Positions 31,301 to 37,300 of a stretch of DNA of 64,000 nucleotides are shown here, piece after piece. Location of the stretch: assembly GCF_003334385.1 (NCBI RefSeq), contig NZ_QOWN01000017.1; one strand, given 5' to 3'. The DNA is from Escherichia coli (lineage in GTDB: Bacteria > Pseudomonadota > Gammaproteobacteria > Enterobacterales > Enterobacteriaceae). Made by a program: the position numbers. The first letter of the stretch is position 1; every line of letters begins with the position of its first letter.

Positions 31301-34300
31301 AACGCTTTTGCCTGAACCTGACTCACCCACCAGCGCCAGCGTTTCGCCAGCCTCAATCTGTAGTGAAACATCATTGACTACTGTACGTACGGTTTGCTGA
31401 TGGCGAAAACCCACCGACAAATTTTCAATCGCTAACAGAGTTTGCGTCATGCTACACCGCCTTATTAGGATCAAATGCGTCGCGGACGGCTTCACCAATA
31501 AAGATCAGCAAAGACAATAATATCGCCACCGACAAGAAGGCGGTGATCCCAAGCCACGGGGCCTGAAGGTTATTTTTCCCTTGTAACAGCAGTTCACCGA
31601 GTGACGGTGAACCGAGCGGTAGACCGAAGCCGAGGAAATCGAGCGAGGTCAGGGTGGTTATCGAACTACATAAAATAAACGGTAAAAAGGTGAGGGTCGC
31701 GACCATGGCATTAGGCAACATATGACGCAGGATGATACTGCGATCGCTGACGCCAAGCGCCTGTGCCGCACGAATGTAGTCGAAATTACGAGTACGTAAA
31801 AACTCCGCCCGCACCACGCCGACCAGACTCATCCAGCCAAACAAGACAGTAATTGCCAGCAGCCACCAGAAGTTAGGCTGTACGACGCTGGAAAGTAAAA
31901 TAATCAAAAACAGCGTCGGCATCCCCGACCATACTTCAATAAAGCGTTGTCCCCAGAGATCGACTTTACCGCCGTAATAGCCTTGTAGCGCCCCCGCCAG
32001 CACGCCCATCACGCTGGAACAGAGAGTCAGCATCAGGCCAAACAGAACCGAGATCCGCGTGCCATAGAGAATGCGTGCCAGCACATCGCCGCCGTTGGCA
32101 TCCGTTCCCAGCCAGTTTTGCCGGGAGGGTGGAGAAGGGAAGGGCTTATCGGTAGCAAAGTTGATACTGGTAGCACCAAAGCGAATCGGTGCCCACAGTA
32201 CCCAGCCGTTATTTTCCAGCCGTTGTTTCAGCCACGGGTCCTGATAATCAGCCTGACTTGCCAGCGGGCCGCCAAAATCGCTTTCGCTGTAGTTTTTCAA
32301 TAACGGGAAATACCAACTGCCGTCATAACGCACCAGCAACGGTTTATCGTTGGCGATAAGTTCAGAACACAAACTCAAACCAAACAAGACGAGGAAAATC
32401 CATAACGACCAGTAGCCGCGACGGTTATGACGAAAACGCGCCCAACGGGCCTGATTGACGGGGCTGAGTCGCGACATTAACGTCCCTCAAAATCAATACG
32501 CGGATCAACCAGCGTATAGCTGATATCACTGACAATATTCAGCAGCAGGCCAATCAGGGTGAAAATATACAAGGTACCAAACATTACAGGATAATCGCGC
32601 GAGACGGTCGCTTCGTAGCCCAGTAAGCCCAGACCATTGAGTGAAAACATCACCTCAATCAGCAGCGAGCCGGTAAAAAACATGCTGATAAACGTCGCCG
32701 GAAAACCGGCAATCACCAGCAGCATGGCGTTGCGGAACACATGTTTCCAGAGAATATTTTTTTCACTTACCCCTTTCGCACGCGCGGTCACCACGTATTG
32801 CTTGCGCACTTCATCAAGGAATGAGTTTTTTGTCAGCATGGTCAGCGCCGCAAAGCCACCAATCACTGTCGCCAGCACCGGCAGTGTGATATGCCACAGA
32901 TAATCGGTGATTTTCTGATACCACGGCAGCGAATCAAAGTTAGCGGAAACCAGGCCGCGTAGAGGGAACAGGTCGAAATAGCTGCCGCCCGCGAAGAAGA
33001 CAATCAGCAGGATGGCAAACAAAAAGGCCGGAATGGCGTAGCCGATGATGATAAATGCGCTACTCCAGACGTCAAAGCGGCTCCCATTATAAACAGCTTT
33101 GCGAATGCCTAACGGAATCGACACCAGATAGATAATCAGCGTGCTCCACAATCCGAGGGTGATGGAAACCGGCAGACTGTCTTTAATCAGCGTCAGCACC
33201 GAGGCGCTGCGAAACAGGCTATCGCCAAAATCAAAGCGGATGTAGTCCCAGAGCATTTTGAAGTAACGTTCGTGGATCGGCTTATCAAAACCGTAGCGAT
33301 GAGTGATCTCAGCGATCACTTCTGGATCTAATCCGCGTCCGCCACGGTAATTACTGTCGCTGATATTGCCGACACCCGTTTGCGCATGGCTGGCACGAAC
33401 ACCTTCACCGCCTGCGCCGGGTAATACTCCGGCATTACCAAACTCAATGGCGGCGATGGCCTGGTCGACCGGACCGCCAGGCGCAATTTGCACGATGAAA
33501 AAGTTGATGGTGATAATCGCCCATAATGTTGGGATCACCAGCAACAGACGGCGAATCAGGTAAGCGCCCATCTACTCTCCCTGTTTGCTGGCGGACGGCA
33601 GTTTGGCCGCTTTATTGACGTCATACCACCAGGTATCGATACCGAGGCTATAGATGGGGCGCACGGCCGGCTGGGAGAATTTATCCCACCAGGCGAGACG
33701 GTCTTCCGCCATGTACCACATTGGCAGCATGTAATAATTCCACGTTAATACGCGATCCAGTGCTCGCCCCAACGGCAGTAATTTTTCTTTATTTCCCTGC
33801 GCGGCAATAATTTGGTTGATCAGCGAGTCGATAACCGGGCTTTGCACGCCGGGGGCATTATAAGTGGAATTGATATATTCCGATGACCAGGAAATCTGTA
33901 AATCGGAACTGGGTCACGGCATCGCCCGCCATACGCGTGGCATCATGTCATAGTCGCGACTGCGCATGCGGTTAGTGATTTGCGAGTTATCCACCTTGCG
34001 AATGTCCATGTTGATACCTAGCCGTTGCAGGCTGTGCTGGAACGGCAATACCCACTGACTATTGCTGCTTGCGGGAAGCAATAATTCAAAGCTGAGTGGC
34101 TGACCCGTTGTGGCATTAACGCGTTGCTGACCCTTCAGCACCCAGCCCGCTTCGTTGAGAAGTTTGTCGGCTTTTAACAGGTTGTCACGATCGTAGCCAT
34201 CGCCTTTGGATACCGGCGGCTGGTAGATTTGTGTGAAGACTTCTGACGGTAGATCTTTTTTCATTGGTGCCAGAAGCACCAGCTCCGCGGCGTCGGGGTA

Positions 34301-37300
34301 ATTTCTGGCCGCGTATTCGGTATTCTGAAAATAACTGTTCGTGCGACTCCAGGCATTGTAAAACAACGCCTTGTTCATCCATTCAAAGTCAAAGGCGAGA
34401 GTGATAGCTTCCCGGACCCGGCGATCGCTGAATACCGGACGTTGGATATTAAACGCCAGCCAACGCGTATCTTGGGCTGATTCGTTCTTTTGCTCATCTT
34501 TGATGATGTATTTTTTATCGAAATTTTTACCGGTATAACGCGTGGCCCAGTTTTTGGCGTCGTTTTCCATACGCAAATCAAAGGCACCTGCTTTAAACGC
34601 TTCAAAGGCGACATTATCATCGAGGTAATAATCGTAGCGAATGGTGTCGAAATTCCAGCGTCCACGGTTTACCGGTAAGTTTGCTGCCCAGTAATCTTTC
34701 ACACGGGAATAGACAATATTTTGCCCCATTTTCCAGGACGTAACGCGGTACGGACCACTGGCAAGCGGAGGCGTGGCGAGCGGGTCGCTAAGTTTGTGAT
34801 CCTTCCAGTACTTTTCTGGAAATACCGGCAGCGAAAACAGACTCAGCATATCTTCTTTGCCGGGTTTAGCTAACTCAATGCGCACGGTTAACGGTGCAAT
34901 GGCTTTGACGGTGGTGCCTTTGTAGACCAGACGAAATTGCGGCACGCCTTCGGTCATAAATTTTTGAAAAGTAAACTCTACATCGCGGGCAGTAATGGGC
35001 GAACCATCATGAAAACGGGCGCGCGGATTAATAGCGACCTCCACCCAGGAATAATCGTCAGCATAGCGTGCGCTTTCAGCAATCAGCGGGTAATAACTGC
35101 CTGGTTCGTCATCGGAAGTCGTAAATAGCGTGTCGTACAGCTGCTCGGTGCGTGCGCCCGGGTTGCCGCGCAGTGCATAGCGGTTGAAATTATCGAAGGT
35201 GCCGAGGGCTGACAACGTTATCTGCCCACCTTTTGGCGCGGCGGGGTTCACATAATCAAAATGGTTGAAATTAAACGCGTACCGGGGTTCGCCCAGCACG
35301 GCAAAGGCATAGCTTTCCTTGATAGCCTGCGCCTGCACACCAAAGGTGAACAGAGCGATAAACAGCAGCAGTATGCGCACAATCATCTGCAACGGATTTC
35401 CTTTTACTCATCATTAGCCGCAATCCGGCATGCTTTCACTATGAATAATAAGGGACGTAAGCACACCTTACCACTGCGGCGTATACGGTTTCTTTAGCCA
35501 GCGAACAAAATCGTCCAGCGGTAACGGGCGGCTAATCCAGTAGCCTTGCATGAAATTAACGCCGCGTTCGCTTAGCCATCGCGCCTGTTCCGGCGTTTCG
35601 ACCCCTTCAGCAACCGTCAGCATATTGAGGCGTTTCGCCAGCGTCAGCACCGCGTCAAGTACGGGGGAAGTGATCGTTTCCGTACCGATGGCGTTGATAA
35701 ATCCACGGTCAATTTTCAGATAATCGAGCGTAAAACGCTCAAGATAGATAAGCGCGCTGTGCCCGGTGCCGAAGTCATCAATAGCAATTTCTACGCCGAC
35801 CGAGTGCAGCCAGGCGAAGAGTTGTGTGGCTTCTTGCTCTTTCAACATATCGCGCTCGGTAATTTCCAGCACAATCTGGAAATGGTGTGCGGGCAGGGAA
35901 GTGAGCAGTTTCTGGATATCTGCTTTAAAGCTTTCGCTGTGCAGATGGTCCGGCGCAATGTTAATACCAAATTTGACGCCTACCGGCAGCACTTTTTCTA
36001 ATTCTGCGGCATCGCGGGCAATTAACTCAAACAGGTGCTGAGTCAGCGGCACAATCATCTTTTGCGATTCGGCAAAGTTAATGAAGGCATCCGGGGGAAT
36101 TTCTCCCGCGACAGGATGCCGCCAGCGTAGCAGTACTTCCAGGCCCGTTACTCGCAAAGCTTGTGTATCCACCACCGGTTGATACGCCACGTAAAATTGT
36201 TCGCGCTTGATGGCGGTCATGATTTCTCTGCCGGGGCGCATACGTACGCTCATCAGGTAATAGCAGAGCAGGCCAACGACAGTTCCACTCATGCCGCCCA
36301 GTAAAAATGCGTACCACACATCGTTCCATGTCCAGTCATCTGCATAAAGCCGAACGGTCAGAGGAATGCCCGCAATTTTAGTTTCACGGACTGGCATGTC
36401 GGTTAATTCGTTAACGTTCATCAAACGTGAAGAAAAGGTAGATAGCGCAGTATTGCCAATAATGAGGGCGACGCCATCGTAATCTTCCTGCCGTGAACTA
36501 TAAAAGAGTGAAGGCGTCAGGTTGAGATTCAGAGCGGCAAAGACGCCGCTATTTTTCAGCAAAGGGTTGCGATACCAGATGACGATTGCGGGTTTGTTCG
36601 GCACCATCGGCGTGCCGGGTAAGATCGCCATATCGACGTTTTTATTAATGTCGAGCGCCGGAATCAATTCATTGAGTGGAATGTCCATCTCACCGGTCGC
36701 AGATGAACAGAATGTTTTTTTATCTTTCACCAGCACAAACGTTCGGACATTCATGCTAAACGCTGCGCGGGCGGTCAGTTCGGGGTTAGCTTGCTGGCAG
36801 GTATCTAAGGTCAGCGGCTGGAGCCGGTCAGTAGTGGATTTCAGGTCGGCAAAATAGGTATCGAGATACTTTTGTACGTCGGTAATCAGTGTGTCGTATT
36901 TGACTTCGTGCTTATGCCAGGCCACTAAAAACTGAAGGCAACTCACCAGTATCGCAATCATTACGCCTGCAACAATGCAGGTAAGCAGGAGCTTACGTCC
37001 AAAATTGGGAGCGCGTATGAACATGATTCCGTTAATTTCCTGAAATTACGACAACATTTAAAAGATAACAATGACCGGACTATAGCCTGGATCAAGACGC
37101 GGAAACATCATTTTCTCTGATGAATGAAAACAAAAAAGCACTGCCTAAGCAGTGCTTTCAGTTAACTCGTCAGGATAGCCAAGGGATTGCATCCAAACGG
37201 TTTATTAGCTGCGGCTGAGAACCCGGCGTGCTTCGTTGTAACGCTTCTTCCAGTACGGTTCATTCATGCTGGAAATAATAACACCACTGCTGGTGGAAGC

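Follow-up and report, generated by a model that had tools for sequence, protein, structure and literature searches.

A premature UGA codon in yejA of an Escherichia coli lineage with an intact yejBEF transporter

The yej operon and its interrupted binding protein gene

We analysed a stretch of 64,000 nucleotides of contig NZ_QOWN01000017.1 from the Escherichia coli assembly GCF_003334385.1, referred to below as the window, in which yejA, the gene for the binding protein of the YejABEF peptide and microcin C (McC) importer, is split by an in-frame TGA codon (Table 1). The window corresponds, at 100% identity, to bases 1-64000 of the 103,874-bp contig QOWN01000017.1. The window is collinear with the K-12 genome across all 64 kb at 99.9% identity and has no internal insertion sequence (IS). 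The identity of the gene as the yejA orthologue is given by its neighbourhood, as the order pdeN-yejA-yejB-yejE-yejF-yejG is kept as in K-12.

On translation, one frame of the minus strand is open across 33572-35392 save for a single internal stop. The residues before the stop read ...RVWRAMP and those after it, in the same frame, PSSDLQISWSSEYINSTYNAPGVQSPVIDSL..., while the base 3' of the premature TGA is a C, giving a UGA-C stop context. A listing of open reading frames (ORFs) splits yejA into 33914..35392 and a 91-residue remnant ORF at 33572..33847, which begins at a GTG at 33847 and comprises the last 91 codons of yejA. Compared base by base with K-12, the gene is of equal length and 99.8% identical over 1821 nucleotides, with no indels and four substitutions: Q305 (CAG>CAA), L456 (CTG>CTA), P483 (CCG>CCA) and W491 (TGG>TGA), all of them G-to-A on the coding strand. 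Since K-12 has TGG at codon 491 and the comparison contains no indel, the W491 change is a single transition. The resulting 490-residue product still matches PF00496 (SBP_bac_5).

The original prediction, made from the sequence of the window, had described a yejA frame continuous over 606 codons and split at 33914-33916 by an in-frame TGA, the outcome of a substitution and not of an indel, with a loss of about 113 C-terminal residues. The TGA is seen both in the translation and in the codon readout, and the comparison with K-12 yejA bears out the single substitution. The continuity of the frame and the truncation also stand, with two corrected figures. Counted from the annotated start, which is the ATG at 35386 in place of the TTG at 35392, yejA comprises 604 codons, and the TGA falls at codon 491 and costs the protein 114 residues (Trp491-Glu604). 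The three genes for the rest of the transporter had been called intact, and they do have their full K-12 lengths. yejB differs from K-12 by one private synonymous change, at 32885. In yejE the only difference is N110D, where the window holds the common allele and K-12 the specific one, and the yejE DNA is identical to that of strain LD27-1 (YejE WP_000088916.1).

Table 1. Positions of the yej genes, the yejA lesion and other lesions within the window
Feature	Position	Strand	Remarks
yejA, whole gene	33572-35386	minus	start is the annotated ATG at 35386
yejA 5' fragment, codons 1-490 and premature TGA	33914..35386	minus	signal peptide, lobe 1, most of lobe 2
Premature TGA replacing TGG (Trp491 of the precursor, Trp472 of the mature protein)	33914..33916	minus	from alignment with K-12
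yejA 3' remnant, codons 492-604 and native TAA	33572..33913	minus	in frame, same as K-12
yejB, permease, intact, 364 residues	32477-33571	minus	start directly adjoins the native yejA stop
yejE, permease, intact, 341 residues	31452-32477	minus	K-12 length
yejF, double ATPase, intact	29861-31450	minus	no difference from K-12
cirA, frameshifted	60987-62979, lesion 62186-62189	plus	TTT in K-12, TTTT here
alkB::IS421 junction	1-145	plus	76 nucleotides of IS421 (IS4 family) terminus and last 69 nucleotides of alkB

Lineage restriction and mutational origin

A full-length match to yejA is present in 5,421 of 5,426 complete E. coli genomes. A query of 61 nucleotides centred on the TGA was searched in the complete E. 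coli genomes, and 5,092 matched the surrounding sequence; no match was perfect and TGA at codon 491 was found in none of these 5,092 genomes. The sole record with one mismatch to the query is strain 90-1, which shares the CCA codon at P483 and has TGG at codon 491. When the locus is aligned to yejA of reference genomes, TGG occupies the codon in K-12, SCU-104, 90-1, LD27-1, FDAARGOS_1249 and PSS-08-2, and no reference carries the TGA of the window.

The stop is one of a set of changes private to the window, which were defined throughout against K-12, LD27-1, FDAARGOS_1249 and PSS-08-2; about 30 apparent differences from K-12 or PSS-08-2 in the tandem-repeat array between mqo and eco were left out of the single nucleotide polymorphism (SNP) counts. 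The private changes comprise 15 G:C>A:T transitions, no A:T>G:C transitions, about four transversions, a 6-bp in-frame insertion and the additional T in cirA. That all 15 transitions run toward AT has a probability of 5e-5 under equal rates. Eight of the 13 coding G:C>A:T changes are synonymous, and the private changes within 10 kb of yejA are all synonymous, the W491 stop aside. Two of the private changes, at 34472 and 53762, lie at the internal C of Dcm CCWGG sites. The plus strand of the window has a positive GC skew and is therefore the leading-strand sequence, and it carries the C>T in 11 of the 15 changes (p = 0.07). The closer relative PSS-08-2 has accumulated 10 G:C>A:T against 4 A:T>G:C changes on its own branch. 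Within yejA, 67 of the 929 G/C sites give a stop codon on G:C>A:T change, and four changes would include at least one stop in about 26% of cases, so that one stop among the four yejA changes is unremarkable. The spectrum is that of ordinary spontaneous, largely deamination-type mutation on the tip branch, filtered by purifying selection, and does not resemble mutagenesis without selection.

Other origins were considered for these changes and rejected. Treatment of a K-12-like laboratory strain with ethyl methanesulfonate or nitrosoguanidine was suggested by the one-strand G-to-A changes in yejA and the 15 G:C>A:T changes; it was rejected as the main explanation because eight synonymous changes stand among the 13 coding ones, because two changes fall at Dcm CCWGG sites, where spontaneous mutation is classically frequent, and because the background is a natural non-K-12 haplotype that lacks IS5 in yejO and has an alkB::IS421 junction common to wild isolates. 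The identity and collinearity with K-12 and the lack of internal IS elements do not fit a decaying genome of the Shigella type, and ancient-DNA or other damage is excluded as the private variants are repeated in independent read sets.

The private variants also bear on the reliability of the assembly. Those that change amino acids (YeiG S257C, PsuT S179R and L220F, YejO A401T and T437M) are found on only 5-8 public contigs. The Logan assembly SRR1815429 is 100% identical to the window over 17736-24861, and the Logan contig ERR1948963, seen in 7 samples, is 100% identical over 54768-64000; these overlaps include private SNPs and the additional T of cirA. As the private variants recur in independent read sets, the private changes of the lineage are not artefacts of one assembly. 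In the NCBI accession series HAH15133xx, HAH90339xx and HAM47130xx the protein numbers of YeiG and PsuT are offset by 9 and those of PsuT and YejO by 25, and the latter offset is also found in the series OWD655xx. Each offset equals the number of genes in the interval minus one, leaving one gene without a protein identifier. These offsets would fit annotation of both cirA and yejA as pseudogenes in three or four assemblies, which makes a one-off assembly error at codon 491 unlikely.

We consider W491* to be a genuine lineage-specific loss-of-function allele of yejA, with a probability of roughly 85%. Some observations weigh against this. Five of the 15 G:C>A:T changes fall within 1.6 kb at yejB-yejA (32885-34472; simulated p = 0.004), a cluster that a uniform mutation process does not predict and that vanishes without two variants found in other strains. 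For the lineage's other assemblies, a TGA at codon 491 is put forward from the accession arithmetic, and W491* itself is known from assembled sequence.

yejA is not the only gene disrupted in the window. The additional T in cirA changes ...AYLVYNAT... to ...AYLVL*, leaving a 402-residue fragment and a second ORF at 62158-62979; the lesion is present in the Logan contig ERR1948963, while the sister assembly GCA_046249065.1 and PSS-08-2 have an undamaged cirA. CirA is a catecholate siderophore receptor that is used by colicins Ia and Ib and several microcins. In alkB, the gene of a DNA oxidative demethylase, the reading frame breaks off after codon 194 of 216, and the identical alkB::IS421 junction is found in five complete genomes (PSS-08-2, MB06233, SCU-104, ETEC1749 and PCP06021). 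As the junction is shared with PSS-08-2, in which yejA and cirA are intact, the alkB::IS421 insertion came first, and the lesions in yejA and cirA are later, private events. It is tempting to speculate that the loss of AlkB might contribute to the C>T-rich private spectrum.

Other differences lie in intact or repetitive sequence. The autotransporter gene yejO (18769-21360, plus strand) encodes an intact protein of 863 residues with the two private changes given above, and is interrupted by IS5 in K-12 and by IS1 in PSS-08-2. The tandem-repeat array between mqo and eco (about 3730-4560, plus strand) consists of units of about 113 bp, one more than in K-12, with many differences from unit to unit. 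In psuG, an in-frame polymorphism in the copy number of the 6-bp sequence AGCTGA lies at 50150-50155 (plus strand), where the window has one copy more than K-12 and LD27-1 and two more than FDAARGOS_1249; the exact 314-residue product is found on 63 public contigs.

Consequences for YejA and microcin C uptake

The Pfam domain SBP_bac_5 covers residues 98-502 of YejA, so the stop at codon 491 lies within the domain. The E. coli YejA structures 7Z6F, 7ATR, 8FSQ, 8FSR and 8FSS match at E = 0, the alignment output from the Protein Data Bank consisting of E. coli YejA entries only. Two published numbering schemes were used to place the stop: that of PMC10924461 is the precursor number minus 19 (mature protein, checked on 12 residues), while that of PMC11725936 is the precursor number minus 18 (12 of 12 residues checked). 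YejA has two lobes, lobe 1 consisting of residues 1-286 and 540-579 and lobe 2 of residues 287-539, joined by hinges at 282-287 and 540-542, and its ligand contacts include Ser475, Asp476, Thr489 and Tyr490 (PMC10924461). Mapped onto the published structures, the stop at mature residue 472 removes residues 472-585. Lobe 2 is thereby shortened by 68 residues, and the second hinge, the stretch that leads back into lobe 1 and all of these contacts are lost.

The residues that bind McC or fMccA are affected in the same way, as five of the 12 (Ser476, Asp477, Ser481, Thr490 and Tyr491 in the numbering of PMC11725936) lie beyond the stop. Ser481, Asp477 and Tyr491 surround the N-formyl group of the ligand, and removal of the formyl group cuts the affinity more than 50-fold (PMC11725936). 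With these contacts lost the truncated YejA would therefore be unable to bind microcin C even if it were folded, and it is likely to be inactive or unstable. The expectation that the product is probably non-functional, which was part of the original prediction, is strongly supported by the position of the stop in the domain, by the structure mapping and by the lost microcin C contacts.

We propose that a spontaneous G:C-to-A:T mutation, C to T on the plus strand, turned the TGG codon of Trp491 into TGA along the private branch that ends in the strain of GCA_003334385.1. With the last part of lobe 2 missing, together with the second hinge strand and the C-terminal strands that complete lobe 1, the 490-residue product would be unable to reach the closed and loaded state in which YejA docks on YejBE. 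With no closed and loaded YejA, the intact YejBEF would get no substrate, and the uptake of microcin C and related formyl-peptide conjugates would be lost or greatly reduced. Deletion of any yej gene has been reported to give resistance to microcin C (PMC10924461), in agreement with the earlier description of YejA loss as a route to such resistance. The strain should be microcin C resistant, and the loss of yejA would reflect weak purifying selection on a dispensable gene and not a special mechanism. The phenotype predicted is resistance, or strongly lowered sensitivity, to microcin C and to the antibiotic conjugates of fMccA peptides in development, for which YejA is the way in. With cirA frameshifted as well, the strain is also predicted to be insensitive to those colicins, microcins and siderophore-type drugs that depend on CirA.

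Recurrence, alternative readings and known systems

The exact 490-residue product is indexed in 46 blocks of the public sequence collection. This number cannot be taken as proof of a widespread allele, because at six of the eight places shown (L010-L015) the contig simply breaks off, at codon 490 or one base beyond it, and has no stop. Real stops at codon 491 were found at the places L008, L009 and L025, and they lie on three other haplotypes: TGA in SRR10358485, which has the K-12 haplotype, TGA in GCA_907175675.1 and TAG in GCA_958431045.1. With the window included, Trp491 nonsense mutations represent at least four independent events in public data. To find other lesions we made use of the 91-residue remnant ORF, which is called separately only when yejA is interrupted; the lookup gave 157 blocks, from which 24 contigs were read. 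Among these 24 contigs, W500 is changed from TGG to TAG on three haplotypes (GCA_002734985.1, GCA_000250035.2, SRR33659997 and ERZ28626602), and the other knock-outs are S502 TCG>TAG, a deletion of G at nucleotide 1460, and both a loss and a gain of C at nucleotide 1532. Among these public loci, L024 (GCA_020556165.1) shows numerous frameshifts in the adjacent genes as well, as would be expected of a long-read assembly of low accuracy.

As these alleles lie on different haplotypes they are independent events, and yejA has been repeatedly knocked out in natural E. coli. A search of the literature for natural yejA pseudogenes or truncation alleles returned nothing relevant. The knock-outs, which were readily found and lie on many haplotypes, amount to standing variation for resistance through loss of the binding protein, with which Trojan-horse strategies dependent on YejABEF will have to reckon in practice.

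The recurrence raises the possibility that the loss is adaptive, with microcin C-type Trojan-horse peptides and bacteriocins having selected for inactivation of the importer and for the loss of CirA too. Two bacteriocin uptake routes are broken within 28 kb in one lineage, and the cirA frameshift is repeated in independent read sets and absent from the sister GCA_046249065.1 and from PSS-08-2. Independent yejA knock-outs are many (four haplotypes with a W491 lesion, three with a W500 lesion, the S502 stop and three frameshifts), and deletion of yej genes does give resistance. However, the search could return only lesions in this short interval, drawn from millions of read sets with no control gene, and G-to-A at TGG is the commonest route to a stop. 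The window also holds a broken alkB, which makes the lineage simply one with several pseudogenes, and two disruptions in about 57 core genes amount to a weak excess. That colicins and microcins use CirA as a receptor, on which part of the argument depends, is general background knowledge. With no denominator or control gene, the recurrence cannot separate weak purifying selection from positive selection of the microcin C type, and we regard adaptive loss as an unlikely explanation.

The nature of the stop codon bears on the strength of the allele. UGA is the leakiest stop codon, and UGA-C is the weak context used in the autoregulation of prfB (PMC5289835). In K-12 reporters UGA is read through at about 2% at 37 °C and about 4% at 25 °C, by a competition between Trp-tRNA and release factor 2 (RF2) that varies among single cells (PMC10570021). 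As the codon replaced is a Trp codon and Trp-tRNA reads UGA, readthrough would restore exactly wild-type YejA, and a small fraction of ribosomes would make it. Within our main reading, W491* is thus probably a strong hypomorph or near-null allele and not an absolute null. A second alternative takes the leakiness of UGA, the UGA-C context and the identity of the replaced codon further, to mean that the allele keeps physiologically relevant function through Trp-tRNA readthrough and that the strain is partly or heterogeneously sensitive to microcin C. However, the readthrough figures come from K-12, whose RF2 variant terminates poorly, and natural isolates should leak less than K-12. The stop also lies 339 nucleotides before yejB and may lower yejBEF expression by polarity, and toxic uptake may need more of the periplasmic binding protein than a few per cent. 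Relevant retained function therefore seems to us quite improbable.

A broader scenario can be drawn from these two alternatives, in which bacteriocin and Trojan-horse warfare shapes this lineage and E. coli in general through the loss of YejA and CirA, and a leaky UGA, dependent on temperature and cyclic AMP, leaves wild-type YejA in a minority of the cells and so serves as bet-hedging between resistance and the benefit of the transporter. We find it rather improbable.

It could also be that the TGA is a sequencing or assembly error and the strain truly has TGG. The source is a draft assembly, and several public contigs end exactly at codon 490, which hints at assembler trouble there. A G-to-A substitution is not a typical consensus error, however, and the other private variants of the lineage are base-perfect in independent read sets. 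A yejA pseudogene is also what the accession offsets point to in three or four assemblies that were annotated separately, and both TGA and TAG occur at codon 491 in unrelated assemblies, so such alleles exist naturally. An error at this position is thus very unlikely.

The contig ends themselves deserve description. At least six public contigs from unrelated runs (L010-L015) end at or one base past yejA codon 490 (position 33917 of the window), before the TGG, five of them after ...GGCGGGCGATGCCG and one after ...GCCGT, and three are 17,677-17,681 bp long. These breaks could be due to chance, given the size of the collection, or to a systematic break in the assembly graph or a sequence-specific read error.

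The last alternative is that the UGA is a programmed recoding site, for example for selenocysteine, to which a hairpin just 3' of the codon could lend support (within 33850-33916, minus strand; 8-bp stem starting 7 nucleotides 3' of the UGA; -12.9 kcal/mol, z = -2.4 against shuffled sequences). K-12, with TGG at codon 491, has the very same hairpin-forming sequence; the hairpin is thus not peculiar to the W491* allele and is probably incidental. With TGG ancestral in every relative examined, no TGA among the 5,092 matching complete genomes and no match to Rfam families within 33500-34200 even at E = 10, programmed recoding can in practice be excluded.

W491* is a real and ordinary nonsense pseudogene of a kind that is already known, and it leaves current understanding unchallenged. 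It has no essential difference from the generic pseudogenes that arise by a single nonsense mutation on tip branches under AT-biased mutation, which likewise have one G:C>A:T change, are restricted to a lineage, keep the flanking operon intact and are accompanied by an excess of G:C>A:T changes. The other natural yejA alleles lie in the same region of the gene, are mostly G-to-A changes at TGG and all leave the same 91-residue remnant ORF; they differ in haplotype, the window being marked additionally by the synonymous G-to-A changes at Q305, L456 and P483. The laboratory yej mutants of K-12, transposon insertions and single-gene deletions in yejA, yejB, yejE or yejF (PMC10924461), share with the window the gene, the operon and the expected microcin C resistance. 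In contrast to these mutants, W491* is a natural point allele in a wild, phylogroup A-like background, with 81% of the coding sequence still translated, a potentially leaky stop and a phenotype that is predicted.

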